Source: an uncultured Oscillospiraceae bacterium (lineage in GTDB: Bacteria > Bacillota > Clostridia > Oscillospirales > Oscillospiraceae). Taken from it: a stretch of DNA of 64,000 bases. The translations under genes and the position numbers were made by a program. The notes beneath the pieces were generated by a model, which did no database searches, was not told the DNA's origin, and saw only the letters and a program-made list of their open reading frames with translations. Positions within the stretch are counted from its first letter, which is position 1; the number at the start of each line of letters is the position of its first letter. This document shows, piece by piece, positions 2,643 through 34,893 of the stretch. The DNA lies in assembly GCA_947629955.1 (NCBI GenBank), contig CANRFT010000006.1:3226-67225 (forward strand), written 5' to 3'.

Positions 2643-3767
2643 TTACAGCACGTGGGAACGGTCCACCCCGATGTCCGGCCGGCAGCGAGGCTCCTTTTCC
2701 CGCAGCTTTTCGGTGAGGGCCGCTCTGATCTCCTCGTCACTGAACTCCGCTTCATAGGGAACCACCACGTCGAACCGCAGGTCCGTGGGGTCGTCGCCGT
2801 CACAGCGGAGGTCGTGGACGGTGGCGGCGGGGTGCAGCTCCCTGGCGGCCTCCTCCGCCAGGGCCCGAAGCCGGCGGAGCTGGGGGCCGTCCGCCCCCAC
2901 CGGGTCCATGTGGATGACGGCGTCCAGCCCGAACCGCTCCTTCAGTTCCCGCTCGATGTGGTCTACCACAGAGTGGATGGCTACGAGCGGGGAGTCCTCC
3001 GGCACCTCCGCGTGGACCGACATCATCCGGCGGCCGGGGCCGTAGTCGTGTATGATGAGGTCGTGGACACCCCTGATCTCCCTGTGGGAGAGGATGAGCG
3101 CCTCGATCTCCGCCACGACGGAGGGGTCGGGAGGCTCTCCCAGCAGGGGACTGACCGTTCCCTTGGCCGCCGTCCAGCCGGAGCGGAGGATGAGAAGGGC
3201 GACTGCCAGCCCCAGCACCCCGTCCACACGGGGACCGAACACCGGCGTCAGCGCCAGACCGATCAGCACCGCGCCGGTGGCCAGCGCGTCCCCCACGGCA
3301 TCCGCGGCGGCGGCGTCCAGGGTGGGGGAGCCAATCTTTTTCGCCCAGTGCCTGTCGAACCATGCCAGGGCCGCCTTGACCAGGATGGTCAGTGCCAGGA
3401 TGGCTGCCGCCGGGGCGGTGAGGGCGGCCCGCTCCGGGCGGACGATCTGCACGATGGCGTCCCTCGCCAGCTCCACCCCCACCAGCAGGATCAGCAGGGA
3501 CACCCCCAGTCCCGCCAGGTACTCCATCCGGCCGTGGCCAAAGGGGTGTTCCTGGTCGGCCCGCTGAGCGGACAGCCGGAAGCCGATCAGGGTCACCAGG
3601 GAGCCGGCGGCGTCAGACAGGTTGTTGAAGGCGTCGGCGGTGACGGACACCGCCCCGGTGAGCAGGCCGGCGATCATCTTGAAGGCGAACAGCGCCAGAT
3701 TGACCCCCACCCCCACCCAGCCGGCGAAGGCGCCCTTTGATTGTCTGGTTTGGCTGTTGTGTTCCAT
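2643..3767 (-). CDS. Cation diffusion facilitator family transporter
   Basis: ADAFNNLSD, HPFGHGRMEY, DAVGD, HDLIIHDYG motifs. Confidence 0.93.
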   Translation of the reverse strand: MEHNSQTRQSKGAFAGWVGVGVNLALFAFKMIAGLLTGAVSVTADAFNNLSDAAGSLVTLIGFRLSAQRADQEHPFGHGRMEYLAGLGVSLLILLVGVELARDAIVQIVRPERAALTAPAAAILALTILVKAALAWFDRHWAKKIGSPTLDAAAADAVGDALATGAVLIGLALTPVFGPRVDGVLGLAVALLILRSGWTAAKGTVSPLLGEPPDPSVVAEIEALILSHREIRGVHDLIIHDYGPGRRMMSVHAEVPEDSPLVAIHSVVDHIERELKERFGLDAVIHMDPVGADGPQLRRLRALAEEAARELHPAATVHDLRCDGDDPTDLRFDVVVPYEAEFSDEEIRAALTEKLREKEPRCRPDIGVDRSHVL

Positions 3768-20907: not shown

Positions 20908-21954
20908 ATGCCGCATAAACGTGTAACCATGCAGGATCTGGCCGACGCCTGCGGCCTCTCCCGGAACACGGTCTCCAAAGTCTTCAATGACCGGGGCGCC
21001 GTGCCGGAGGCAACCAAGAAAGCTGTCCTCCAGAAGGCCCAGGAGATCGGCTATCTACAGACACCTTATTTTCTCGTCCCGGAGAACGAGGCCGCTCCGT
21101 CCCCCGCCCGCCCTCAGAACATCGCCCTGATCACCAGCCACATGCCGAAGGACTACCACTTCGCCATGCTGATCCTGCCCGTCTTTACCGAGCGCCTGGG
21201 CCGCGGCGGATATACGCTGATGATCTATGAGCTCTCCCCGGAGGAGCTTCGGGAGAGACGGCTGCCCTCCCATATGCCCCTGGAGCAGACCGCCGGCATC
21301 CTGGGGATCGAGCTGTTCGACCGGGGCTATATGGATATGCTCTGCTCCCTGGGGCTCCCCGTCCTCTCCGTGGACGGCTACATGGAGGCCATGACCACCC
21401 CCATGAAGTGCGATTTCATCCTGATGGAGAACCTCTCCAGCACCATCGCCGTCACCGGGCGCGCCATTGCCGCCGGGGCCAGGCGGCTGGGTTTCGTGGG
21501 GGACATTGCCCACTGCTGCAGCTTTCACGAGCGGTGGATGGGCTTCTGTCTGGCGCTGGAGAGCGCGGGCGTCCCCCTGGACAAAAGCTGCTGCATTCTG
21601 GAGAAGGACTCAGAGCCCTACGACGATGTGGACTGGGTTCAGGAGCAGCTGCAAAAGATGCCCGTCATTCCGGACGCCTTCGTCTGCGCCAACGACTATC
21701 TTGCCTTCCCTGTGGTGGCGGCGCTGAAGCGTCTGGGCCTGGCGATCCCCAGGGACGTGATGGTGGCTGGCTTTGACGACACGCCGCCCTCCGCCGTGAT
21801 GGACCCGTCCCTGACCACGGTGCAGATCCCCAGCGCTGACTTCGGGCGGATCACCGCGGAACTCCTGCTGGACCGCATCCAGCGCCCCGGCGCCCCGTTT
21901 TTGAGCACCTACGTCAAGACCACGCCGGTCTGGCGGGGGTCTACGGATAAATAA
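20908..21954 (+). CDS. LacI family transcriptional regulator
   Basis: VTMQDLADACGLSRNTVSKVFN HTH; AFVCAND, PRDVMVAGFDD, PSLTTV. Confidence 0.95.
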   Translation: MPHKRVTMQDLADACGLSRNTVSKVFNDRGAVPEATKKAVLQKAQEIGYLQTPYFLVPENEAAPSPARPQNIALITSHMPKDYHFAMLILPVFTERLGRGGYTLMIYELSPEELRERRLPSHMPLEQTAGILGIELFDRGYMDMLCSLGLPVLSVDGYMEAMTTPMKCDFILMENLSSTIAVTGRAIAAGARRLGFVGDIAHCCSFHERWMGFCLALESAGVPLDKSCCILEKDSEPYDDVDWVQEQLQKMPVIPDAFVCANDYLAFPVVAALKRLGLAIPRDVMVAGFDDTPPSAVMDPSLTTVQIPSADFGRITAELLLDRIQRPGAPFLSTYVKTTPVWRGSTDK

Positions 21955-23626
21955 ACGCAAATAAAACAGCCGGTTTCGCAAGAAACCGGCTGTTTTCCGT
22001 GGGCTGACCATCCCAAAATACATAGGCGAAAGGGGTCCCTGTAAAACCGCCCTTTGGCTTTGCGGGGAGAGGAGGAGCAGCGGAGCGAGCGCGCTCCGGC
22101 GTAAAAAACGCCGGAGCAAGCGATACGCAGCTTGCTCCGACGTGGTGACCCGCCTCGTCCAGCGGTCGAACCCGCTGCGCTGCGGCGTCTACTTCCTTCA
22201 GGGTGATCGTGCGATTATCTCCAGAGTAATTGAAGGTGATGGTGCCCCTGTCATCATAGACGAACACCGCGTTGACGAATACTGAGATGATCCTCCGCTG
22301 ACTTTCTGGCTCATTGAGATCCATATTGCGGAATTGCGGGAGGAAGTATTTGATTTGTTCCTGGGTCAGCTTGAAGCCGTTGATCAGCTCCGCGTCGGCC
22401 AGGGCCGCCTCCAGGTCTGCTTTTTGCCGGTCGAGTTCATCCATTCGTGCTTTGGTGGCGGAATTGAAAATGCCCGCCTCCATAGCTTTGATCAGATTGG
22501 AAATGGCTGCCTGTACTTGCCCCAGTTCCGCGCGGAGCGCGTCTGTGTAGGAGGTATCCGTGTTTTGCTCCTGGTAGTAGCGGAAGGTCTGTTCAGAGAT
22601 GTAGTCCACCATCTCGTCGCTCATAACGATGGAGATCGCCTTTTGCAGGACCAGATTCTCGATCCACTCTTTACGGACAGCCCGCTTTCGGCAGGAATGG
22701 TGGTTCTTCTTCCCTAGACAGGTGTAGTAGTAATAGGTGGTGCCATGCTTGCCAGTCCCGCATTCTCCAATCATCGTGCTTCCGCACAGGCCGCAGAATA
22801 GTTTTCCGGTGAGCAGATAGTCTGCTTTTGACCACTTCCTGGCCGGGGCCCGCCTGTTTTTCACAAGAAGGTCCTGGACCTTTGCAAATGTCTCCGCATC
22901 AACAAGGGCGGGGATATAGGCGTCAGGGTACTCTTTCCCGTCGTAGTGGTACACGCCTATGTATTTCTTGTTTTTGAGGACCGCCCGGATGCTGTTCACA
23001 GTCAGAGGTTTCCCTTTCCTGGTTCGCAAGCCTTCGGCGTTCAGCGCCTCGATGATTTCTTTTTGGGTGTGCCCCGCCGCATACATCTCAAAGATGCGGG
23101 TGACCAGAGGAGCGGTCTTGGGATCCGGTTCCAGATGCTTGTCTGGGCCGGTCCGATAACCGAGCGGGAGCGTTCCGCCTATGCTTTGACCTTTCCGGGC
23201 CGCATTGTCCATGCCGCGCTTGACGTTGGTGGCCAACTGCACGGAATAATACTCCGCCATACCCTCCAACACAGCTTCCAGGATGATCCCCTCTGGGGTA
23301 TCGGGAATGCTCTCGGCGGTATAGAGGACTTTAACTCCGTTTTTCTTACAGCGGTATTTATTGAAGGCGATCTCTTCCCGGTTGCGGCCAAAGCGGTCGA
23401 TCTTCCAAATGATAATGGCCTCAAACTGATGCTTGGCGGTGTCCTTCAGCATTTGCTGAAACTGCTCCCGGTCATCGTTGCGCCCGGTCTGTGCCCGGTC
23501 GCAATACTCGTGGATGATGGTGTAGCCGTGCTCTGCGGCGTACTTGTAGGCAGAGGCTAACTGCCCCTCAATGGACTGTTCGCCCTGCTTATGGCTGGAG
23601 TATCGGGCATAGACAACAGCGTTCAT
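21941..23626 (-). CDS. Large serine recombinase; frame reads through the att site
   Basis: YARYSS catalytic Ser, DRFGRN, recombinase domain, zinc ribbon (CGLCG..YYTC..C), coiled coil; codons 493-495 lie in the att core. Confidence 0.93.
   Translation of the reverse strand: MNAVVYARYSSHKQGEQSIEGQLASAYKYAAEHGYTIIHEYCDRAQTGRNDDREQFQQMLKDTAKHQFEAIIIWKIDRFGRNREEIAFNKYRCKKNGVKVLYTAESIPDTPEGIILEAVLEGMAEYYSVQLATNVKRGMDNAARKGQSIGGTLPLGYRTGPDKHLEPDPKTAPLVTRIFEMYAAGHTQKEIIEALNAEGLRTRKGKPLTVNSIRAVLKNKKYIGVYHYDGKEYPDAYIPALVDAETFAKVQDLLVKNRRAPARKWSKADYLLTGKLFCGLCGSTMIGECGTGKHGTTYYYYTCLGKKNHHSCRKRAVRKEWIENLVLQKAISIVMSDEMVDYISEQTFRYYQEQNTDTSYTDALRAELGQVQAAISNLIKAMEAGIFNSATKARMDELDRQKADLEAALADAELINGFKLTQEQIKYFLPQFRNMDLNEPESQRRIISVFVNAVFVYDDRGTITFNYSGDNRTITLKEVDAAAQRVRPLDEAGHHVGASCVSLAPAFFTPERARSAAPPLPAKPKGGFTGTPFAYVFWDGQPTENSRFLAKPAVLFAFIYP
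21963..21996. terminator. Bidirectional intrinsic terminator (lacI on +; tRNA operon/recombinase on -)
   Basis: AAAACAGCCGGTTTC-gcaa-GAAACCGGCTGTTTT, with a T-tract on both strands. Confidence 0.85.
22032..22142 (-). repeat. tRNA-3'-linked ~110 bp repeat, copy 1
   Basis: Shares GGCTTTG(C/T)GGGGA.AGGAGG.GC, GAGC, GATACG.AG and CCGACG blocks with 34511-34619 and 34712-34819. Confidence 0.85.
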
Positions 23627-24246
23627 TCGTGCCTCACATCCTTAAGCGGCTCCAGGTCGAGAGCCAGACGGGCGGTGTTCCTGTCCTTTAGGGAGGCGGC
23701 GTCATAGGCTCTGGCCACCTCCCGTGCCTCTACCGTGATGTCCTGCGGAGTGTAGGACTTGTCCCCCGTCCACACCTCCAACGGCACTCCCAGGGTGTCG
23801 GAGAGCTGCAAAGCGATGGGGAGGGGCGCATCCTTCATCCTCCGCAGGATGATCGTACGCACCTGACGGTCGGTCAGCCCGGACACCCGGACAAGTCCCG
23901 GAATGTCCAACCCCATCCCTTCCATGACCGAGATCAGGATCTTATAAAAAGGCGGACGGTCCCCGGGACACAGGGAGTTGAAGGCGGCCTCCTCGGCGGA
24001 GTCCCCCATTAGATAATCTGCTGAGACATTCAACGCCTTGGCATACTGCTGTACCTGGGTGATTTTGGGGATACGCTGGCCGATCTCGTACCGGCTGAGT
24101 ACCTGCTTAGAGGTACCCAACAGCGCCGCGAAATCATCCTGAGACAGCCCCTTTTCCTTACGGATCGCCCGGAGACGCTGACCGAAAGACACATACTCCA
24201 CATCTACTGCCGGCGGTTCAGGGTACTCAGTCTTAAAAAAGTCCAT
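23623..24246 (-). CDS. XRE/HTH_3 repressor, possibly with a second HTH-like domain
   Basis: RLRAIRKEKGLSQDDFAALLGTSKQVLSRYEIG; ATGA overlap with the recombinase. Confidence 0.88.
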   Translation of the reverse strand: MDFFKTEYPEPPAVDVEYVSFGQRLRAIRKEKGLSQDDFAALLGTSKQVLSRYEIGQRIPKITQVQQYAKALNVSADYLMGDSAEEAAFNSLCPGDRPPFYKILISVMEGMGLDIPGLVRVSGLTDRQVRTIILRRMKDAPLPIALQLSDTLGVPLEVWTGDKSYTPQDITVEAREVARAYDAASLKDRNTARLALDLEPLKDVRHE

Positions 24247-24348
24247 ACTTCTCCACCTCGTTTTTGATCAGGGTATTCCAATTAAAGCACATAAAGTCAA
24301 CTAAGTCAATACCTAAATGTACATATATACAAATTTATCACCATGTAG

Positions 24349-24377
24349 TTGACAAACGGGAAAGGAGGCGCTATACT
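24349..24377 (+). promoter_or_regulatory. Rightward sigma-A promoter of the element
   Basis: TTGACA-N17-TATACT. Confidence 0.75.
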
Positions 24378-24441
24378 GTCACTATCATCCGTCAACTGTT
24401 CCAGTGAATTTCTACTAAAAGTGTCACCAAACGGTTGACTA

Positions 24442-24645
24442 TTGGAGGTGATACCTACTGTTGACCTGATTCGGGTCGATCCCCAGGCCATCCCCCGCGT
24501 GGAACAAAAAATACTGTGCGCCACTTTGCTGGAAGCCGTGCTGCGATTTTACGAGGACCCTGAAAATCGGGCAGCTTTCGAGCGGTGGCGCATGGGGAAA
24601 GGAGGAACCCAGCGTGGACAAGAAGACTGCGGACCAGTTGCGTAA
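24442..24645 (+). CDS. Small hypothetical protein in a cro-like position (start uncertain)
   Basis: 67-aa ORF divergent from the repressor, after a consensus promoter; the RBS-like GGAGGTG lies inside the track ORF start. Confidence 0.55.
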   Translation: MEVIPTVDLIRVDPQAIPRVEQKILCATLLEAVLRFYEDPENRAAFERWRMGKGGTQRGQEDCGPVA

Positions 24646-24838
24646 AGAGTATCCCAACTATATTAAGCTGGAAGTGGCCAGCAAGTATCTGGGCGTGTCG
24701 CCCCGGCAGCTCTCAAAGCTGATCGCGGAAGGCCGGGAGCCCTTCGCATCGATTGGCGCAAACATCGGAACGACACAACGGTATACCCGCATCTATACGG
24801 AACCCATGATTGCTTTACTTAGTGGAGAGCTGCGCTGA
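24614..24838 (+). CDS. Small HTH DNA-binding protein (excisionase-like)
   Basis: RBS AAAGGAGG; IKLEVASKYLGVSPRQLSKLIAEG MerR/Xis-like HTH. Confidence 0.7.
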   Translation: MDKKTADQLRKEYPNYIKLEVASKYLGVSPRQLSKLIAEGREPFASIGANIGTTQRYTRIYTEPMIALLSGELR

Positions 24839-24977
24839 CCGTGGGTAAGCATTGACAGGGGGTGATTGCCTTCTGTGAGGGCGAACCGTTCTCAACACCC
24901 AGCCGGGCGGCAGAGAAACAGCTTTTGTCAGGAAGCTGTTTCTCTGCCGCCCGGACACTTTTTATGAGGAGCTTCAA

Positions 24978-26063
24978 ATGAAACTGCACGAAAATCAACT
25001 GAATTTGATTCGCTTTTTAGCGCGGTTCAATCTGCTTGATTACCAGGACTGCCTGCAATTTCTGGATACGGCAGGGACGGGCGACCGCACCGCGCTCTCC
25101 TATATGTTCCGGCCCTTGACGAAGAACGGGTATCTTATCAAGCATAAAGACGGCAGCGTCTCCATCTCGGCGAAGGGCCGGGCCTTATTTCCGGAGATCA
25201 CTCCGCTGATCTCTACTGGCGGCAGAGGGCCAGAACAACATAGAGTGATGAAAGTCTCCCATGTGGCGGCCCTGATGGATCGAAACGGTATCCCGGCATC
25301 CGCGAAACCGTCGAAGGACGGCGAGCCTCGTTTTATCCCATCGGCTTGCTGGCGGAATATTGCCCCTGGGATCTTGTCCACCACGCGCTTTGTCGGTGTG
25401 CTGACGGCTGAAGAACACCGCCTGGCAGTCTATGATATTGGGGACGGCAAAATGGAGTGGCAAGTCCGGGCGGAAGGATCTCTGTTTTATACCAAGTATG
25501 GGAGTTATAAGACAATGGCCACAGGAATGCTGCTGATTTGTCGGGAGGACGATTGGGATCAGATCGCCAAAAACATTATCCGGCATACCATGTGGCACCG
25601 CCGCCGGCTTATGAAGGATCGGTGCCTGGAGCGGAACAGACCTACACGCTGGTCCAGATCTCCCATTGTACTGCGTTCCAAGTATGAGCATGTCTATCTC
25701 ACTACGCCGAAGCGGCTGGCGAAAAGCCTCCGGCTGATTTGGGAAGAAGAGGAGTACATCGAGGATTTTCTCGGTAATGCTGTCAAAAGTAATGAGCCGC
25801 AGATGTGCGACGCTGAACTCTGACCCCGGCGCTTGTTCGTAAATCCAGCCACTGATTTGTTGAAATATGTATACTTTTTTGCGGCGGTCAAAGATCAGTT
25901 GAGTCTATTGAAGGATGAGCGTTTCTTTATCAGTCCCATTCAGTATGAAATCTATATCCAGCCGGCGGATCGGGCGATTCTACAGATGTACCCGGAAATC
26001 GTCAGGGAGGAGAGTGTAACAGTCTATGTATATCGATCTGAAGAAGACGATGGAGACGATTGA
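24978..26063 (+). pseudogene. wHTH protein (replication/relaxation-like?) interrupted by an in-frame TGA at 25821-25823
   Basis: The 281-aa ORF and the following 76-aa ORF are in the same frame: ...GAA CTC TGA CCC CGG CGC TTG TTC...; no RBS before the second ORF. Confidence 0.55.
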
Positions 26064-26595
26064 GCGGTGCCTGCCGGAAAACGAGGCCGCCACTCTGCCA
26101 AGCTTGCAGCAAGCTTACCGGCATACAATCCGTCTGCAAAGCCAACTTCTATCCGTCATTTATGATATGGAGACATTCGGCACCCACACAGAGCGGGATC
26201 CGCCCCCGCTGGCGAAGCAACTGAGCGCGGGAGGAAATGCCGGCCATGCGGTTACGCTGACGATCCAAGAGCCGCTGCCTGCCATGAAATATCTCTCTGA
26301 ATCTGTGGAGGAACACTGGAAAGCAATGATCCACTCGGCGATCGCTGATGCGGCGGCACTGGGACCGCTCCCTTACTTTGCGAAGGCCTTTGTAGAGATT
26401 GAGATCATCACTCCCAAAGGGGCCAATAACAGCCGCGTGTGGGATACCTCCAACCGGGCCATCAATGTGATCATCAACAACCTGAAAGGAATCTTTTTTC
26501 GGGACGACGATATGGGGCACATGGCTTTCTCGGTGGTAGGAAGGTGGGGTGAAGAAGGTGTCACGATTATTCGTGTTTCGGACTTTGACAAATAA
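26026..26595 (+). CDS. Hypothetical protein with a degenerate RusA-like C-terminal half (start may be 26050)
   Basis: VWDTSNR..IINNLKGIFFRDDD resembles RusA D-x-D-N..D-x-L-x-G..DD. Confidence 0.5.
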   Translation: MYIDLKKTMETIERCLPENEAATLPSLQQAYRHTIRLQSQLLSVIYDMETFGTHTERDPPPLAKQLSAGGNAGHAVTLTIQEPLPAMKYLSESVEEHWKAMIHSAIADAAALGPLPYFAKAFVEIEIITPKGANNSRVWDTSNRAINVIINNLKGIFFRDDDMGHMAFSVVGRWGEEGVTIIRVSDFDK

Positions 26596-27281
26596 CAGCA
26601 AATCAGAGCCATCCGATCATGCGGTAAAAACAGTTGAAACTATGGCTTTTCAAAAATGTCATGGGGAAAAGAACGCGAAGCCCTGAAATCAGCATTTTGG
26701 ATCGTAATATGGCGTGATTTGTATTGAATGGGCAAGCGGCTTTACCATAGCCGCGGAGGGGTTCTGTGAGGAGCCTCTGCGGCAGCAGATGCGACGAACA
26801 GAACAGAAAAAGGGGCCGAAACCGTGTGAGCGTCAGAATTGACGCGAACACGGTTTCGGCCCCTTGGTGATCTTCAGTTTTGCTCGGTTTCAATTATCCG
26901 TTCACTTTGTAAAAAACAACGAGGGCAAGGCGGCCTAAGAAATCATTCCGCCACTAAGCGTGTGGCAGGCAACTTCACAAGGAGGTTCTTACGTTTCTTG
27001 TCACTTGAGGACGCTGGGGAAAACAGATTTCAGAGTCTTGCTGGATGTAATCCCGAAAGCTGTTTGTGCTGCAACTGTTGAAGAAAAAACAACCCGGAAG
27101 ACGGCATATGAACAGACATTGTATCTCTATCTCTGGATTTCGTTTAGAGAGATTTTGCCATATTCCTGTTTGATGTCCGGATTATGGGACTGTAGATGCG
27201 GTGAAATTAGTAGGATAAGTAGAACAGCGGGTAATCATTCATTTGAAATAATGTAATCTTGAGTATGTGGGAATGTCTTTG

Positions 27282-27310
27282 TTGAAAAGAGGCTGTGTTT
27301 GTTATAAAAT
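27282..27310 (+). promoter_or_regulatory. sigma-A promoter of the cargo operon
   Basis: TTGAAA-N17-TAAAAT, then AGGAGG at 27339-44. Confidence 0.65.
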
Positions 27311-27353
27311 AATAATTAGAAGCAGCTTTCCCAAGATCAGGAGGTCGGTACCG

Positions 27354-28781
27354 GTGCTGAATAAAGAATATATCTTAGAGACCATCCGGCCCTACCTAAT
27401 TGAAGGAAAAAAACTTCGGGAAAGTGATTTTGACCAATTATTTTCTGAACTTACCCGTAAAGAGCAATATCAAATCATTGAAATTTTAATCGACGAAGAT
27501 ATCGACTATGTTGATGATGAAATGGATCCCACTATTGCCCAGGAGAGTACTATAGACATACTTGCCGAAATTGAGCCAGAGCAAATTACCGAGACAAAAA
27601 AGCTATCTACAGCGAAAAAATCCACCATGGGAGGAGATGCTAAACAGCTCCTCGGCCTTAAAAACGAACAATTGTGTACTCTATATCAGCAGGGAGAGTC
27701 TCTCGCTCTTGAAGCGCTGATCCTTAAAAATGAGAAATTTGTTTATCGAGATGCCCTTATCCTTTCAAGACAGTTTAAGCAGAACAGCCTTACGATAGAT
27801 GACATTGTTCAATACGGAAATATCGGACTAATTGCGGCAGCAGATCGTTTTGATGCTACTCGTGAATGTTCATTTTTGACATACGCAGGCCACTGGATTA
27901 AGCAAAGCATTATCAGGAATATTATTGACCATGCATATATGATACGGTTGCCTGTCCATGTAATGGAACGGGTGCGCCGTTTTTGGGGTATACGTGCAGC
28001 ACATCCCGATTTTACTGAAACTGAATTGATCAATGAAATTATCACATTAGGATATGCTACATCGGCAAAAGAAATCCGCTACCTTCTTAACCTCGGTGAT
28101 CAATATTTGAATACTACCAGCCTTAATGTCCTAATTGGCGAAGATGAAGAAACAGAGCTTGAGGAATTTATCCCTTCGGATATTTCAGTGGAAGAAGTCG
28201 TAGATCAAACATTGCTTCGGGAAAGCTTGGAAAAAGTGTTATCCATGCTTACGCCACGAGAGGAAAAAATTCTTCGCCTTCGGTTCGGGCTTGATGATGG
28301 CATCGAGCGGACTTTGGAGGATGTTGGCAAGATATTTGACGTTACACGAGAACGAATCAGGCAGATTGAAAACAAGGCGCTAAAGAAATTGCGACATTCA
28401 TCAAGGGCCAAATACATTCGTGACTTTTACGGTGACAAAGCGAAGAAAAAATCTTCTTCCAAAAATAAACTGAAGCCAACACAGCAGGATGTTACTCCTA
28501 AGCAACAACATAGAGAATCCTTTGACTTTTTCGCAGACACAGAATTCGATACCCAAATACAAGAGGTCTTGAATCATCTTACCGAAAAGGAAGGTTTTAT
28601 CTTCTCGTTAAGGTTCGGAATAGATTATGGGCATTGTTTAACTCCGGAAGAAATGGATACTCTTTACGGAATCAAAAAAGAAGAATTATATATCGTAGAA
28701 AACAAAGCATTGTTTCAAATGGATGCTTCATTTCGAGAAAAGTTTAAGGCTATATTCTATGGAAGGAGCGCACAAAAGTGA
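27354..28781 (+). CDS. RpoD/SigA-like sigma-70 factor with an additional C-terminal region-4-like domain
   Basis: GTG start after AGGAGG; region 2 (QYGNIGLIAAADRFD..FLTYAGHWIKQSI), region 3 (IRLPVH..SLNVLIGEDEETEL), region 4 (RTLEDVGKIFDVTRERIRQIENKALKKLRH), second LTEKE..LRFGID..ENKAL block. Confidence 0.88.
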   Translation: MLNKEYILETIRPYLIEGKKLRESDFDQLFSELTRKEQYQIIEILIDEDIDYVDDEMDPTIAQESTIDILAEIEPEQITETKKLSTAKKSTMGGDAKQLLGLKNEQLCTLYQQGESLALEALILKNEKFVYRDALILSRQFKQNSLTIDDIVQYGNIGLIAAADRFDATRECSFLTYAGHWIKQSIIRNIIDHAYMIRLPVHVMERVRRFWGIRAAHPDFTETELINEIITLGYATSAKEIRYLLNLGDQYLNTTSLNVLIGEDEETELEEFIPSDISVEEVVDQTLLRESLEKVLSMLTPREEKILRLRFGLDDGIERTLEDVGKIFDVTRERIRQIENKALKKLRHSSRAKYIRDFYGDKAKKKSSSKNKLKPTQQDVTPKQQHRESFDFFADTEFDTQIQEVLNHLTEKEGFIFSLRFGIDYGHCLTPEEMDTLYGIKKEELYIVENKALFQMDASFREKFKAIFYGRSAQK

Positions 28782-31700
28782 TTGTGGATAAAATTCAAGA
28801 ATATATTGAGAAACATAATGGCCCTGGAACACTTTTTGTAATCAAAGGATATGCCTTCACAGAATTTGAAAGCTGCAATGCATCGCTGGAAAGGACACTG
28901 AGGGACAAAGGTGCCCGATTTATGGAAATTCTTCAACAGCCCACAAAGGTTGTCCTCTATGAAGAATTTATTTGTCTTCGAGAGATTATTCTTTCGATGT
29001 TCTCAAAAATCTATATTTTTGAGAACATCGATTATATAAATCTGTTCCCTGTCCGTGTGAACCTTCAGCCAGAAATTATTTCTGCGTTGTGCGTACATTA
29101 TGACGAAGAATCCCAGGAAGAGATCTCGCTGGAACATTTAAGCGGCTATATTGATATTTACAGCAACTTTTTAAAGATTGGGGATTATTTCGCCTGCCGC
29201 TATAATTTGGATGAAAGTTATCTGCTCAGCGAAAAAATTGAACGCCTGTTTATTTCAGAAGATGAGCCATGTGATTTATGTACATGCGAAGTAGATAACG
29301 AAACCATTTTGACCATTTGTGAGGAGAGTGATTATTTTTCCTTAGCATACGGTTTAGAGGTGTCAGATACCGTCTTTGCGGTTGCGTTGGACAGTGCTTC
29401 CGTAGGAAAAACTGTACTGCAGGACAAGCTGCGGGGACTATGCGGAAAATATCCCAACAGACTGTTCAACTATGTTCCCCGAGCGGATAAGCAGATTCGG
29501 AAGTGCCCGCAAGAGATATACGATACGCTTGGCCGCTACTGGGGATACGATACTTTCCGGTCAATAAAAATGTATGACGTGGCCGCTGTTGAAGATCATC
29601 AAAAGAAAGTCATCACGATCTCGCAGGAAGACATTATTTGCGATCTTATTGAACAGGCGGAAAATTGTGTGGAGGGGAAAACATACCGGGATATATTTGT
29701 AACTGCGCCGACGGGTTCCGGAAAATCATTGATGTTCCAGCTTCCGGCGATTTACTTGGCGGAAAAATATAAGCTGTTGACTCTGGTTATTACTCCCTTG
29801 ATTGGGTTGATGAAGGATCAAGTTCAAAATCTTGAGGAACGGGGATATTTTGGCGCCAAAACCATCAATTCTGACATTTCTCCGATTGTTAGAGAGGAGA
29901 CCCTTGCCGCGGTTGCAAATGGGGAGTGCGATATTTTGTACTTATCTCCAGAATCTTTATTGAGCCGCAATGACGTGGAACAACTCATTGGGAAACGCAG
30001 GATTGGTATGCTTGTTGTGGACGAATCTCACATTGTCACAACGTGGGGAAAGCAATTTCGCCCGGACTATTGGTATTTGGGGGATCACATTCGAAAACTC
30101 AGAAAGCGCCAGTCTCAAAGGGAAAACGATCCTGCTCCGTTTATTATTGCCACATTTACTGCAACGGCGATTTACGGCGGAAGCGAAGACATGTATCACG
30201 AAACGCTGAATAGTCTCCATATGGTGAATCCCATTACCCATTTGGGACATATCAGGCGGAGTAACATTTCTATTGAAGTGACTCAGGCGGAAAAAAGAAC
30301 CCGCAATGAGTACGAGAGTGACAAATTTGACTTTTTAATTTCAGAAATCCATAAAGCGCTAATCCGTGGACAGAAAGTGTTGATTTACTTTCCGACAGTC
30401 GTCCTGATTAACAGCTTCAAGTCCTATTGCTATGCCAAAGGCCTTGGAAAACACCTCTCCATTTACCATGGCCAGTTAGATGCCGACGAAAAGGACTTCA
30501 ATCTCAATGAATTCCGTAATGGCAACAGACTTGTTATGGCCGCAACAAAGGCGTTTGGCATGGGCATCGACATTCCAGATATTAGCATCGTCATGCATTT
30601 TGCACCTACTGGGAATGTGTGCGACTATATGCAGGAGATTGGTCGCGCTGCGCGAAAAGCGGAGATTGATGGACATGCCATCTACCAGCATATTAGCGAT
30701 GACTTTAAGCACATTAACAGGTTGCATGGACTTTCGACCATTAGGAACTATCAACTTATCGAAGTCATTAAAAAAATCCTGGAACTTTACACGGCCTCCC
30801 GTTATTCTGAAAAATCTAAGCCTCTCACCAAAAAACGGAATGAGATGCTTGTGGATGCGGAAAGTTTTGCCTATATTTTTGGAGCGGCATCGGCAGATGA
30901 TAGCGATTTGATTGCAAAAGTAAAAACGGCGATGCTGTTGATTCAGAAAGACTACGAGCGGAAAGGATTCGCACCATTTTACATGAGACCGATCCCCGTT
31001 TTTGCCCATGGCTATTTCGCAATTCCGATTACTCAACAAGCAAAGCTAAATCGAAAGTATCCTGTTGCCGCGCAACTGGTTTTCCGCGAAAAGAATATAT
31101 TCAAAGTCGATCTGCGCTTGATTTGGGATCGGGAGTACAGCAGAGAAATGTCCTTTCCGAAATTCAAATACCTGCTTTACACGCAGAGCCCGGAATTATC
31201 ATTTAACGAGCAATTCTCTCTGACGCCGGCAATGTCTATTGACATCACGCTGGCAGATAACAGCGGGCTTATATTTGACTCCGTCATAAATGCTTTGCAC
31301 GGTATATTCCAAGAGTCGATTTCCTCGGGGAACTACCTGAAGGAATCCATCATTTCAGAACGGCTTGCATCTTTGTGCAGTTCCTTGGGCATCAATCGTT
31401 ATAGAGCGCAAAGCGCAATTAACGTTTTTTTTGCGGCTGCCAACACATATGCAAGTGAATACTCTAAGCGCCTCAATGGAAGGCTTTATCTCACTCGGGC
31501 AACCCATGCGGGAGACACGTCATATTCCATCAGGTCTTCTATTCAGGACTTTTTTAACTGGATCAAACGCCGCTTCAGGGAGATTTTAACACAGTCGATC
31601 CCTGCTGATTCGGAGACTCAGCGTAAATTGTACCTTATAAACGACAGTCATAATACGCAATGCAAGGAGTATCTAACCTGCTTAGGTGTCTTGGAGACCA

Positions 31701-32314
31701 TGGGGGTTCTTCGTTTTAAGTCGCTGGGCGGCTCAAATAGCCAGCTTTACATCTATGTAAACTCGGTAAAGGATATGACCATAGTCAGAGACCGCCCTGC
31801 TAGCTACATAAACCGACTGCTGGAATTGGTGAATAAGCGGCATAGAGATTCCGTTGAAATGTTGACGTACTTATTCCAGAACGATTTTACAAGCGAAGAA
31901 ATCTGGGATCATTTGGAGAACTATTTTCTTGGAATCATGCCAGATACATTTGGCGGGAAGACTGTCATGGACACATCCATTGATTGCGACGACAGAACTG
32001 TTATTCTCCAGATTGGCGATGATTTTAAAGAAGATTACACGTCTTGGAGCGAGGCCGCGATTCTGTTTGATGATTTTCAAACCGAAAAACTTGACCTCGC
32101 AGGGATACCTTTGGCTGACTACTACAGCGCAAAGCTGTATGCCGGCAGTCAGTATGTGGATGTCCTCCTTGCTTGGCAGAGTCAAAAAATAGCTTTGGTT
32201 GATGTCAATATTCCTGACGAGCTGGGCGAAACCTTTAAAGAGAATGGATGGCTTGTCTGCCAGTGCAATACCTTGGACTTAGATAAAATGAAACACAGAT
32301 TTGAGGAGCGATAG
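28778..32314 (+). CDS. Large RecQ-like SF2 helicase with long N- and C-terminal extensions
   Basis: APTGSGKS, PLIGLMKDQV, VDESH, WGKQFRPDY, TATA, ATKAFGMGID, QEIGRAAR; GTGA overlap with the sigma gene. Confidence 0.92.
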   Translation: MIVDKIQEYIEKHNGPGTLFVIKGYAFTEFESCNASLERTLRDKGARFMEILQQPTKVVLYEEFICLREIILSMFSKIYIFENIDYINLFPVRVNLQPEIISALCVHYDEESQEEISLEHLSGYIDIYSNFLKIGDYFACRYNLDESYLLSEKIERLFISEDEPCDLCTCEVDNETILTICEESDYFSLAYGLEVSDTVFAVALDSASVGKTVLQDKLRGLCGKYPNRLFNYVPRADKQIRKCPQEIYDTLGRYWGYDTFRSIKMYDVAAVEDHQKKVITISQEDIICDLIEQAENCVEGKTYRDIFVTAPTGSGKSLMFQLPAIYLAEKYKLLTLVITPLIGLMKDQVQNLEERGYFGAKTINSDISPIVREETLAAVANGECDILYLSPESLLSRNDVEQLIGKRRIGMLVVDESHIVTTWGKQFRPDYWYLGDHIRKLRKRQSQRENDPAPFIIATFTATAIYGGSEDMYHETLNSLHMVNPITHLGHIRRSNISIEVTQAEKRTRNEYESDKFDFLISEIHKALIRGQKVLIYFPTVVLINSFKSYCYAKGLGKHLSIYHGQLDADEKDFNLNEFRNGNRLVMAATKAFGMGIDIPDISIVMHFAPTGNVCDYMQEIGRAARKAEIDGHAIYQHISDDFKHINRLHGLSTIRNYQLIEVIKKILELYTASRYSEKSKPLTKKRNEMLVDAESFAYIFGAASADDSDLIAKVKTAMLLIQKDYERKGFAPFYMRPIPVFAHGYFAIPITQQAKLNRKYPVAAQLVFREKNIFKVDLRLIWDREYSREMSFPKFKYLLYTQSPELSFNEQFSLTPAMSIDITLADNSGLIFDSVINALHGIFQESISSGNYLKESIISERLASLCSSLGINRYRAQSAINVFFAAANTYASEYSKRLNGRLYLTRATHAGDTSYSIRSSIQDFFNWIKRRFREILTQSIPADSETQRKLYLINDSHNTQCKEYLTCLGVLETMGVLRFKSLGGSNSQLYIYVNSVKDMTIVRDRPASYINRLLELVNKRHRDSVEMLTYLFQNDFTSEEIWDHLENYFLGIMPDTFGGKTVMDTSIDCDDRTVILQIGDDFKEDYTSWSEAAILFDDFQTEKLDLAGIPLADYYSAKLYAGSQYVDVLLAWQSQKIALVDVNIPDELGETFKENGWLVCQCNTLDLDKMKHRFEER

Positions 32315-32316
32315 AG

Positions 32317-34041
32317 ATGGCCAGGATGATTCCCAGCAATGTTACCCACGAAGAATTTCATGGTAGTATCGGTGAGGAACGCACCTACAACGCACTGTCT
32401 ACGCTGCCGGATGAGTATGTTATATTTCATTCGGTCCATTGGAACAAGGCTTGCTCAAGTGGGAGAGTTGTCTGGGGGGAATCGGATTTTGTTGTCTTCC
32501 ATCCGAAGCGCGGGCTACTTGTCATCGAGGTTAAATCCGGCGGCATTGCCTGCAAAGATGGCCGCTGGTATCAAACAAATACTTTGACAGGCGAGTGTAT
32601 GCAGATGAAACGTTCGCCCATGGCGCAGGCTGAACGAAGTAAGTTTACATTTGTGGATCTTTTGGCAAACTCAAAATTGGATACAGTCAGGAATTACTGG
32701 GTGGAATGTGCGGTTTGGTTTCCAAGTGTCAATGAGCGTAGCAAAATTGGAGATATGCCTTGTGAGTATTCTGTGGGGAATGTACTCTTGCAAAATGATC
32801 TGAACAATCCTGGCGTAGCCATCATGCGAGTTTTCGACTTCTACAAAATGCACGCACCCTTTAATGCCTCTAAAGAAGAAACCGATGAGGTTATTCGCAT
32901 TCTATCCCCCAGTTTTGATGTTGTTCTTACCTTCTCAGGTAAGGCCATTGAGCAAGACTATTGTTTTAACCGAATGACAACGGAGCAAAGCTATTTGCTT
33001 GATTATCTAGAGGAACAACGTGTTGCAGCCATTCAGGGCGGTGCCGGAACGGGGAAAACGATGTTGGCAATTGAGAAAGCCCGGAGACTGGCAGAAACGG
33101 ATCAGGTTCTGTTTCTATGTTTCAACCGCCATTTGCTACAATATCTCCAGAGCTCCTACGGGACTGCCATTCCCAATATTACATTTACAAATCTACCCCA
33201 ACTTACCTGCAGACACATGCAAGTCCTTGATGCCGGTGGAGATGAGGGGATATCCCGGTATCTCAATGAATATGATCGGCACTCCTGGCCCTATCGTCAT
33301 ATCATCATTGATGAAGGGCAGGACTTTGCCGAACACCATCTGGAACTCCTCTACACCATAGCCGAAATAGCAGATGGCTGTTTCTACATTTTCTACGACA
33401 AAAACCAACTTGTCCAACAGCGGCAGACCCTGGATTGGGTTAACCGTGTTGAGTGCAGATTAATTCTTTCTCGCAATTGCAGAAATACCCGTAGCATCGC
33501 AGTGACATCGTACAAGCCCCTTGGAATTGAGAAAATCAAAATGCGATTAGATGTTCCGGGGCAGAAACCGACTATGTATCTCTCCAGGAATATAGAGGAT
33601 GCACAGCAAACTATTGGATCTGTAATTCACAACTACACACAGCAGGGGATTCAGAAAAAGCAAATTGTAATTCTCACTGTAAAAACAGAAGATACGTCGA
33701 TTCTGTCTGGCGTTTCCTCTATTAGAGAGTACCCACTTGTTCCCAATCGGGATGATAGTGGGATACTGTTTACATCTTCCCGCAAATTCAAAGGCTTGGA
33801 ATCAGATGTCGTTATCGTTGTGGACGTAGATAACAGCTGTTTCCTTGACGATGAAAAACGGAGAGTGTTCTACGTGGGAGCATCAAGAGCAAAACATTAT
33901 CTGGATATCGTATCTGTGATGAGTGATGAGGAAACGAATAGCATGGTTTTGCTTTTAACTGGTGAAAAAAAGAAGAACGCTAAATTAGCGTTGGGATCAT
34001 TCTTAAAAGTTAAAATTGTTTCTGGTGGCACAACGTCTTAG
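32317..34041 (+). CDS. NERD nuclease fused to an SF1 (UvrD-like) helicase/ATPase
   Basis: ESDFVVFHPKRGLLVIEVKSG nuclease motif; GGAGTGKT, IIDEGQD, RNCRNT, FKGLESDVV, YVGASRAK. Confidence 0.9.
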   Translation: MARMIPSNVTHEEFHGSIGEERTYNALSTLPDEYVIFHSVHWNKACSSGRVVWGESDFVVFHPKRGLLVIEVKSGGIACKDGRWYQTNTLTGECMQMKRSPMAQAERSKFTFVDLLANSKLDTVRNYWVECAVWFPSVNERSKIGDMPCEYSVGNVLLQNDLNNPGVAIMRVFDFYKMHAPFNASKEETDEVIRILSPSFDVVLTFSGKAIEQDYCFNRMTTEQSYLLDYLEEQRVAAIQGGAGTGKTMLAIEKARRLAETDQVLFLCFNRHLLQYLQSSYGTAIPNITFTNLPQLTCRHMQVLDAGGDEGISRYLNEYDRHSWPYRHIIIDEGQDFAEHHLELLYTIAEIADGCFYIFYDKNQLVQQRQTLDWVNRVECRLILSRNCRNTRSIAVTSYKPLGIEKIKMRLDVPGQKPTMYLSRNIEDAQQTIGSVIHNYTQQGIQKKQIVILTVKTEDTSILSGVSSIREYPLVPNRDDSGILFTSSRKFKGLESDVVIVVDVDNSCFLDDEKRRVFYVGASRAKHYLDIVSVMSDEETNSMVLLLTGEKKKNAKLALGSFLKVKIVSGGTTS

Positions 34042-34057
34042 GGGTATAAAAGAACAA

Positions 34058-34093
34058 AGATAGAGCCAAGGCCTTATGGCCTTAGCTCTATCT
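34058..34093 (-). terminator. Element-borne terminator, better on the minus (tRNA operon) strand
   Basis: 16-bp hairpin; its single C-A mismatch on + is a G-U pair on -, followed by TTGTTCTTTT on -. Confidence 0.7.
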
Positions 34094-34149
34094 CTTCTTC
34101 AACCGCAAATACATTCCTTACAACAAAGAGGGTTCGTATCTGCGCGTTT

Positions 34150-34225
34150 TGGTGACCCGTCGGGGGCTCGAACCCCGGACCTTCGCCTTAAAAGGGCGTT
34201 GCTCTACCAACTGAGCTAACGAGTC
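34150..34225 (-). tRNA. tRNA-Lys(TTT), integration target
   Basis: GACTCGT/ACGGGTC acceptor stem, anticodon loop CTTTTAA, CCA; 76 nt. Confidence 0.93.
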
Positions 34226-34478: not shown

Positions 34479-34510
34479 ATATCAACTTGTACTGCCATAC
34501 CCGCCCTGAT

Positions 34511-34619
34511 GGGGTCCCCGCAAAGCCGTCCCCCAGGCTTTGTGGGGAAAGGAGGCGCAGCGGAGTGAGCGAGACCTGCCGCTTGCGGCGGGGCGAACGA
34601 TACGTAGCTTGCGCCGACG
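34511..34619 (-). repeat. tRNA-3'-linked ~110 bp repeat, copy 2 (directly after tRNA-Arg CCA)
   Basis: Block similarity to copies 1 and 3. Confidence 0.85.
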
Positions 34620-34696
34620 TGGTACGCCTGAAGGGACTCGAACCCCCGGCCCGCTGCTTAGAAGGCAGCTGCTCTATCCACCTGAGCTACAGGCGC
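34620..34696 (-). tRNA. tRNA-Arg(TCT)
   Basis: GCGCCTGTAGCTCAG, anticodon loop CTTCTAA, CCA; 77 nt. Confidence 0.95.
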
Positions 34697-34711
34697 ATAT
34701 TGTGCCCTTTC

Positions 34712-34819
34712 GGGGCCCCCGCAAAGCCGCTCTCCAGGCTTTGTGGGGAAAGGAGGCGCGACGAAGTGAGCGAGCTCTGGCCGCAGGCCGGAGCGAGGGA
34801 TACGCAGTCCGCGCCGACG
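34712..34819 (-). repeat. tRNA-3'-linked ~110 bp repeat, copy 3 (directly after tRNA-Gly CCA)
   Basis: Block similarity to copies 1 and 2. Confidence 0.85.
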
Positions 34820-34893
34820 TGGAGCGGGTGATGGGAATCGAACCCACGCGACCAGCTTGGAAGGCTGGGATTCTACCATTGAACTACACCCGC
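34820..34893 (-). tRNA. tRNA-Gly(TCC)
   Basis: GCGGGTGTAGTTCAATGGTAGAAT, anticodon loop CTTCCAA, CCA; 74 nt. Confidence 0.95.

Follow-up and report, generated by a model that had tools for sequence, protein, structure and literature searches.

A large serine integrase gene that crosses its own attachment site in a tRNA-Lys island of an Oscillospiraceae bacterium, and the exchange of its C-terminus upon integration

The window, that is the whole stretch of 64,000 nucleotides analysed here (positions 3,226 to 67,225, forward strand, of contig CANRFT010000006.1 in assembly GCA_947629955.1, from an uncultured Oscillospiraceae bacterium), holds an island of 12,007 bp, one copy of its flanking 10-bp repeat being counted. 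It carries a gene for a large serine recombinase (LSR), a helix-turn-helix (HTH) regulator gene, further open reading frames (ORFs) and a block of cargo genes, and is followed by a tRNA-Lys gene (Table 1). This integrative element of 12 kb, whose cargo is defence-like, was inserted at the CCA end of tRNA-Lys(UUU) by a large serine integrase of the phage type. An earlier note on this DNA had proposed that the LSR ORF crosses its own att core, with codons 493-495 lying in the core, and that integration swaps the C-terminus of the enzyme. The repeat, the translation and the empty sites described below all bear out the crossing.

The borders of the island are exact to within the 10-bp repeat. This direct repeat, TGGTGACCCG, flanks the island, and its right copy (34150-34159) is the 3' end of tRNA-Lys(ttt), CCA included. 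The GC content is 0.39-0.55 within the island versus 0.62-0.68 in the host, a drop that fixes the borders independently; the LSR ORF occupies the left end of the low-GC block. To the left of the first copy of TGGTGACCCG sits a copy of a repeat of about 110 nt, which is also found after other tRNAs of the operon. Three congeneric genomes (G183, G597 and G603) have an uninterrupted attB, where the 110-nt repeat adjoins tRNA-Lys directly (...gcttgctccgacg^TGGTGACCC..., the caret marking the point of junction here and below) and where one BLAST alignment covers the empty junction constructed in silico. Genome G583, the closest one for the left flank with about 90% identity, was rejected as an empty site, since it continues with different DNA past a LacI-type gene.

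The LSR has the usual domains of its class in Pfam, namely Resolvase (PF00239, 9.4e-29, residues 3-147), Recombinase (PF07508, 2e-19) and Zn_ribbon_recom (PF13408, 1e-13). Y6, R8 and S10 are invariant across an alignment of 83 LSRs, so that the resolvase domain carries the nucleophilic serine, and the recombinase and zinc-ribbon parts with their inserted coiled coil are present as well. A Phage_integrase domain is not present, which separates this protein from tyrosine recombinases such as the SSV-type integrases or Mx8 IntP. The reading frame passes through the attP of the element, which reads GGGTTCGACCGCTGGACGAGGCGGGTCACCAAAACGCGCAGATACGAACCC on the coding strand and comprises about 51 bp with perfect 7-bp terminal inverted repeats and a central core. 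Residues 493-495 (G-H-H) are encoded by GGT CAC CA^C across that core. The distance from GGTTCGA to CCA is 20 nt in the LSR gene versus 15 nt in tRNA-Lys, and the same offset of +5 was read by eye in a tmRNA-targeting relative in genome G412. For serine integrases, the zinc-ribbon (DBD2) motif is known to lie about 5 bp farther from the centre in attP than in attB; judged by these distances, the offset of the T-loop mimic corresponds to this half-turn shift.

Joining the two ends of the island in silico leaves the frame open for 494 + 25 = 519 residues, ending in QNAQIRTLFVVRNVFAVEEEIELRP and a stop codon, whereas the integrated state specifies a 67-residue tail of host origin and a protein of 561 residues. 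Both lengths agree with what the earlier note had derived. It had placed the circle tail at 34149-34072, which is two bases off: the tail codons run from 34151 to 34077 and are followed by TAA at 34076-34074. The position of this stop in the loop of a terminator was read correctly. Other copies of the repeat in the window's own genome match residues 494-533 of the LSR. A regular expression for the tail motif occurs once in the six frames of the 64-kb window, and a profile of the tail gives a single match below E 0.01 on the whole 2.2-Mb genome, at the expected place (E 2.8e-10), which argues that the tail at the junction did not arise by chance. Recombination with attB thus exchanges everything past the core. 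The free circle encodes a 519-residue enzyme with a predicted C-terminal hairpin, the integrated element the same body followed by translated terminator sequence of the tRNA operon.

Table 1. Features of the island and of its target site (positions in the window).
Feature	Position	Strand	Basis or remark
Integrated island	22143..34149	.	10-bp repeat, GC shift, empty attB in three genomes
attL copy of the core TGGTGACCCG	22143..22152	.	codons 493-495, GGT CAC CA^C on the minus strand
LSR ORF, integrated state, 561 aa (P0001)	21941..23626	-	Pfam domains, AlphaFold2
Host-derived 67-codon tail and stop	21941..22142	-	read from the tRNA-linked repeat, family D1/D4
Displaced terminator of the tRNA operon, 14-bp stem and U6	22100..22142	-	fold, terminator scan; inside the LSR ORF
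P arm of attP in the LSR gene	22153..22174	-	T-loop mimic GGGTTCGA; encodes the variable linker ..RVRPLDEA..
HTH_3 regulator, 207 aa	23623..24246	-	overlaps the LSR start (ATGA)
Cargo: MzaA-like sigma-type protein, DpdF/'C3a193'-like DEAD helicase (1178 aa), NERD-UvrD helicase	27267..34041	+	Pfam, PADLOC
Bidirectional terminator of the element, 18-bp hairpin	34056..34095	.	free energy (dG) -32.7 kcal/mol, z -7.3; native LSR stop in the 4-nt loop (AUAA)
Native (circle-form) tail, 25 codons QNAQIRTLFVVRNVFAVEEEIELRP and TAA	34074..34151	-	tail hidden Markov model (HMM), E 2.8e-10
P' arm of attP AAAACGCGCAGATACGAACCC	34129..34149	-	DNA-conserved; ends CGAACCC, inverted repeat of GGGTTCG in the P arm
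tRNA-Lys(ttt)	34150..34225	-	last gene of the Gly-Arg-His-Gln-Lys operon; CCA end is the attB/attR core

The earlier note had made its reading depend on the conservation of the circle tail among homologues. It is conserved, as seen in 16 of the 120 best homologues, in 11 chromosomal copies and in the entropy of its codons. Those 120 homologues (55-93% identity) keep the body of the enzyme up to a short core and are unrelated to each other thereafter. Their cores end in GH^H/Q, xH^H/Q, CST^K/I/R/N/S/T or GSP^, as would be expected of a codon interrupted by a tRNA-type ...CCA end (CA^N or A^NN) and completed by whatever DNA comes next; the residue after the break is in every case compatible with such a codon. 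The native tail (tail HMM, E 1e-12 to 7e-17) follows the core in the 16 sequences mentioned, while in the other 104 divergence sets in precisely behind the tRNA-type CCA. Native examples such as CST-ITHTYEHPTTFVVWRNVFAITVPVK and GSP-KREDTNTFFVVKNIFAITVKIPERR match the tail TLFVVRNVFAVEEEI assembled in silico for the window, and the conserved motif is [LFV][FY][VIF][VF][RK][NK]VFA[VIL]. The unrelated tails, which we call junk tails, measure 31-176 residues from an NYSGD anchor to their end, and the integrases that bear them range from 492 to 640 residues in length. The two native-tail genes whose contigs were examined lie inside phage genomes, with a lysogeny module upstream and holin and amidase genes right after the stop; with lysis genes directly behind the native tail, this is the arrangement of an unintegrated attP. 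Host genes lie directly downstream of the two junk-tail genes examined (P0005 and P0012), and the far ends of the islands of these closest integrated relatives were not within their 10-kb flanks. Among 80 relatives from IMG/VR, 25 have the native tail by the strict HMM and about ten more show a diverged motif by eye; in each of the 25, the contig continues for 1.1 kb or more past the stop, and many of the junk-tailed ones are located at contig ends.

The complementary half of the pattern was found in chromosomes. The tail profile, searched by itself against 401 genomes from this order, returned 11 places in 10 genomes, all in open frames of 19-63 residues and none contiguous with an integrase body. 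Every one of them lies directly behind the CCA of a tRNA (Lys, Arg-cct, Ala-cgc or Met), of a transfer-messenger RNA (tmRNA), or of a tRNA/tmRNA-like 3' end for which ARAGORN made no call. In G412, where both ends were seen, the order is tmRNA, tail, 15.8 kb, and then an integrase 57% identical to the one in the window; joined at CCACCA, its frame is again open for 519 residues and ends ...SH-HNAHRRTLYIVKNVFAFTEEIPPKP. In genomes of the family with LSRs of 40-47% identity the tail profile gave no significant matches, which points either to tails of another kind or to elements distributed over several contigs. Altogether, the attP-in-int layout runs through a large family of phage and island integrases in Clostridia/Oscillospirales whose targets are tRNA and tmRNA genes at their CCA ends.

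Some further occurrences of the tail are worth recording. The 3' end of tmRNA is the target for five of the 11 chromosomal copies (L072, L074, L075, L076 and L077, in G273, G412, G478, G571 and G352), and in G273 the same tail stands at contig ends beside both tmRNA and tRNA-Met. In G543 (L106, G543:C5:3000-17500), an LSR 81% identical to ours lies 12.7 kb from a near-identical tail, which follows only the 3' two-thirds of a tRNA-Lys. We did not retain it as a clean second case, since the junction on the LSR side reads GGGTC^GAATTTT and not ..CACCA^ and part of the tRNA-Lys is missing; a secondary-site insertion or a rearranged one could account for it. In G145 (L068 1500-1770, G145:C2), the decayed 3' remainder of another LSR gene keeps the T-loop mimic, the core and an intact tail (..ASTITRAYEHLEITWVAHVFALTVKAERP and stop) about 6 kb upstream of a junk-tailed LSR, with no adjoining tRNA, and may represent a tandem or nested insertion into an att-like site. 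The 'complete genome' of Faecalibacterium phage FP_Epona (MG711462.1, L100/L101) starts just past the LSR, whose product ends soon after ..CCTCCACCA and does not have the motif; this product looks like a prophage form.

Conservation of the tail is of two kinds. The first 20 or so nucleotides after the CCA, AAACGCGCAGATACGAAC, keep a fixed position with respect to it and are read in two frames according to the subfamily (NAQIRT versus KTHRYE), a 2-nt indel restoring the frame between subfamilies. The first seven or so codons of the tail are conserved as DNA, as the P' arm of attP, and not as peptide. For the next 11 or so codons, the mean entropy per codon position is 0.94/0.47/1.55 bits over 13 independent sequences; it falls to 0.35/0.10/1.46 bits in the N-V-F-A block, and arginine is encoded by both CGG and AGG/AGA. 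This pattern shows selection at the protein level on the central block. The last codons overlap the stem of the terminator. The 3' end of the gene is layered, with the P arm, which encodes a disordered linker, followed by the core, the P' arm, the peptide LFVV[R/K]NVFAV and a terminator with the stop in its loop.

AlphaFold2 predictions were compared for the two kinds of tail. The native tail was modelled in the homologue P0032 (alignment of 120 sequences; mean predicted local distance difference test score, pLDDT, of 83), in which the usual catalytic, recombinase, zinc-ribbon and coiled-coil parts are followed by a hairpin (457-471) and a helix (482-490). The linker 494-507, with pLDDT below 50, is the stretch encoded by attP. 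The tail itself was predicted as a beta-hairpin (510-514/517-523, pLDDT 72-78) with a conserved K/R-N at its turn. In the integrated form from the window, with long antiparallel helices at 359-417, the body was confidently predicted, and residues 486-561 (pLDDT 27-38) came out as disordered, with practically no secondary structure. The best Foldseek matches of the modelled family member were chains of the SPbeta integrase (PDB 9y66, 9dxd and 9dxh; E 7e-20, about 515 aligned columns), followed by Bxb1, phiC31 and LI. The LI/A118 integrase ends just after the hairpin aligned to 456-470, and the present family thus carries an extension of about 55 residues. In a search of the PDB by profile, the alignment reached no farther than position 470 and so gave no residue-level equivalence for the tail.

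The likeness to SPbeta SprA is of interest for the tail, since SprA also has a C-terminal extension after the coiled coil whose extreme end takes part in direction control. Residues 530-545 of SPbeta, which make contact with the recombination directionality factor (RDF), occupy a hydrophobic pocket at the coiled-coil hinge; F532, one of them, is needed for excision and not for integration. The extreme C-terminus of such enzymes is therefore a plausible control point. The direction in SPbeta is set by a separate RDF, the identity of the two proteins is only 18-19%, and none of the sources consulted puts the SPbeta attP within sprA.

The integrated gene has a further property, which goes beyond what the earlier note had reported: a terminator lies within its reading frame. 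This hairpin is the start of the tRNA-linked repeat (CGUCGGAGCAAGC-UGCGUAUC-GCUUGCUCCGGCG-UUUUUU) and covers roughly codons 496-509, about 160 nt ahead of the in-frame stop; a second terminator at about 21960-21999 also precedes that stop. Presumably the first of these ended the tRNA operon prior to insertion, a task now performed by the terminator of the element, which ends the converging cargo gene as well. Terminator and stop follow each other in the same order in five of six integrated homologues, and in the sixth (G412) an in-frame stop lies in the loop of the host terminator. With terminators ahead of the stop, the 561-residue form may, judging from the order of these signals, rarely be made in full. 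Transcripts that end at the displaced terminator would carry no stop codon; mRNAs of this kind are normally rescued by tmRNA, and their product is tagged for degradation. On the element's side, a stop in the terminator loop was also seen, by eye and with no folding, in most of the other native chromosomal tails. As for the repeat itself, it begins with CGTCGG right after the CCA of the tRNA ends, and its copies in the window are at 22023-22142, 34503-34623 and 34704-34823; it occurs throughout the genus at many loci, with up to 18 listed copies per genome. The U6 tract of the terminator is found only in the copy behind the last tRNA of the operon.

A homologue with the attP-in-int layout is already in print, so that the kind is known but unstudied. 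For the Roseburia phage Shimadzu, a preprint places the integration site within the LSR gene, describes integrases of lysis and lysogeny that differ in their last 20-22 or so residues, suggests an effect on stability, and reports virion production by lysogens as well as the curing of about 5e-3 of cells (Cornuault et al. 2019, bioRxiv 10.1101/575076). The Shimadzu integrase (LR596903 orf31) is a homologous LSR, 42% identical to P0032, which in turn is about 72% identical to the LSR of the window. Its frame crosses the crossover, and its tail, ..NPVYFFKKVFAVVVNFTRK and stop, shares the conserved motif; the coding sequence is flagged as partial/pseudo in LR596903.1 (L099). In the text available to us, the matter is a one-passage remark on one phage, with no conserved tail, family pattern, CCA-end rule, att anatomy or test, and the carrier is a phage and not, as here, a 12-kb cargo island. 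This remark was all that was found on LSR genes spanning attP or on serine integrases at tmRNA ends in the literature searched, which took in few subscription journals and left most of them outside, and that literature yielded neither a general account for serine integrases nor any functional test.

More distant parallels exist among tyrosine recombinases. In myxophage Mx8, a classical case, attP lies in the int coding sequence, integration makes a new 3' end, and the prophage form (IntX instead of IntP) is active but altered (Tojo 1996, Magrini 1999). Fold and mechanism are, however, unrelated to those of serine recombinases. The segment replaced in Mx8 is also much longer, with about 112 residues. 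The earlier note had drawn on the mycobacteriophages in which attP lies within the repressor gene, and as far as layout goes the comparison is apt: in integration-dependent immunity, the attP core lies in a phage gene, its 3' end is removed, the fate of the protein changes, and the 3' remnant stays at the other prophage end beside a tRNA (Broussard 2013). There, however, a repressor gene is split by a tyrosine integrase and an ssrA-like degradation tag is lost, whereas here the integrase is split, the HTH_3 gene is intact at 1.5 kb from the core, and the native tail ends in ..IELRP and not in ..AA. The 'suicidal' archaeal integrases of the SSV type likewise have att in the integrase gene, and gene and site are regarded as a compact portable module. 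A review on archaeal integrases describes self-disrupting recombinases as known only from archaea. The SSV-type enzymes are tyrosine recombinases cut into N- and C-terminal halves, with the catalytic domain separated, whereas only the last 25 of 519 residues are affected here. SSV-type integrases target tRNA genes.

What, then, may the exchange of the tail do? The earlier note had supposed that the choice between integration and excision, or the stability of the protein, may depend on the two isoforms. Our overall explanation, which we consider probable but by no means settled, combines the attP-in-int architecture of the island with a lowered level of integrase function while integrated. Its second component, that the swap as such lowers the amount or the competence of the enzyme in the integrated state, is put forward more tentatively, as a serious possibility suggested by the layout of the gene. 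The free form, being the one that integrates, would yield an enzyme in which the tail hairpin has a working role. After integration, the enzyme would lack the hairpin, and its mRNA would probably end at the displaced tRNA terminator before any stop is reached, so that the integrase would become both scarcer and less able. Insertion would then be a commitment step, with excision not abolished. Several points weigh against this proposal. Shimadzu excises readily, so that any down-modulation would be partial at most; indeed, virion production by its lysogens and the curing of a fraction of cells imply that the prophage-encoded form supports excision. The in-frame stop in the host terminator loop of G412 indicates that the non-stop idea would not be universal, and terminators leak. 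The canonical LI/A118 integrase ends before the extension and works in its absence.

A different possibility is a built-in switch of direction, in which the native hairpin would dock on the zinc ribbon at the coiled-coil hinge and hold an integration-only state, while the isoform that lacks this tail would permit attL x attR recombination with or without an RDF. Each DNA state would then encode the enzyme for leaving that state. By construction, an isoform exists solely in that DNA state from which it has to carry out the reaction; aromatic and hydrophobic positions in the tail are invariant, no RDF was recognisable among the ten island ORFs scanned by Pfam, and SPbeta, the best structural match, has its C-terminus in the hydrophobic pocket of hinge 1, in contact with the RDF, with F532 acting in one direction only. 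The polarity is opposite, though: SPbeta needs its C-terminus for excision, and here the tail is absent when excision is due. The docking is hypothetical, and since RDFs are small and varied, one could be encoded by the unassigned ORFs at 24306-26595. We regard such a switch as rather unlikely.

Equally, we are inclined to doubt that the swap is a neutral by-product of compaction, with attP overlapping the 3' end of int, the tail aiding folding or DNA binding, and the swapped enzyme working about as well and having no regulatory role. The free variation of the junk tails in length and sequence, in which nothing is selected, is in line with it, as are the efficient excision of Shimadzu, the LI integrase with no extension at all, and the compact portable module that an att site within int constitutes, as argued for archaeal integrases. 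But clear purifying selection on the peptide extends to integrases of only about 42% identity and to many different target tRNAs, and the peptide is unlikely to be dispensable. Moreover, it exists in one of the two states only, so the states must differ in its role.

The most far-reaching version, in which the exchange would form a self-contained state sensor setting both direction and dosage with no dedicated RDF, strikes us as improbable. Here, the basic-tipped hairpin would dock at the zinc-ribbon/coiled-coil hinge or on T-loop-like DNA and drive attP x attB recombination. The integrated mRNA would be stop-less and end at the captured tRNA terminator; its protein would be tagged by tmRNA and scarce, and what remained of it would have an altered preference of direction. 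Conservation of the tail as DNA only, as an extended attP arm or a terminator with an accidentally open frame across the junction, is very improbable and was rejected on codon periodicity. In its favour, AAACGCGCAGATACGAAC is conserved as DNA and read in two frames, and the terminator stem takes in the final codons of the tail. Against it, the central block has a pronounced period of three bases, its third positions being free and its arginine codons mixed; between subfamilies, the frame is regained through a 2-nt indel; no stop interrupts the joined frame either in the window or in G412; and the block lies 36-60 nt from the crossover, past a normal LSR half-site.

Serine integrases are prized for genome engineering because they act in one direction, and how the direction is set is an active structural question, for which recent cryo-electron microscopy of SPbeta and phiC31 points to the coiled-coil hinge and the extreme C-terminus. 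The family described here amounts to a natural experiment, one enzyme body being produced with or without a conserved hairpin depending on the state of the DNA alone. If the tail affects direction, affinity or half-life, it would provide a small transferable handle on integrases, and would account as well for the way in which insertion is stabilised by small islands and gut phages. Protein databases mostly hold junk-tailed prophage forms (104 of the 120 best matches), and those who mine them for tools should first rebuild the circle form. The family also offers a clean rule for locating element ends, which is to look for the motif of the tail immediately past a tRNA or tmRNA CCA.

The remainder of the island is made up of cargo and of a set of ORFs next to the integrase. 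The PADLOC matches of the cargo are MzaA for the sigma-70-like protein (1e-46), 'C3a193'/DpdF for the 1178-aa DEAD helicase (4e-139) and 'RTasNERD-Hel' for the NERD-UvrD helicase (8e-72), and on these similarities the cargo looks like an anti-phage system. No terminase, capsid or transfer genes were noted in the 12-kb island in the gene survey of the earlier note, ten ORFs having been scanned here. The two-gene module of HTH regulator and LSR recurs in the relatives L043 and L046. Beside it, the ORFs at 24306-26595 encode about 72, 281 and 189 residues, with no recorded function in the libraries searched; their counterparts in L043 and L046 measure 76, 361 and 194 residues and recur in relatives with different cargo. 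This set may comprise candidate excision or replication functions. The window's own genome has a second LSR (G000:C2:36177-37631, L002; 36% identity, open frame of 672 residues), along with several more distant serine recombinases.

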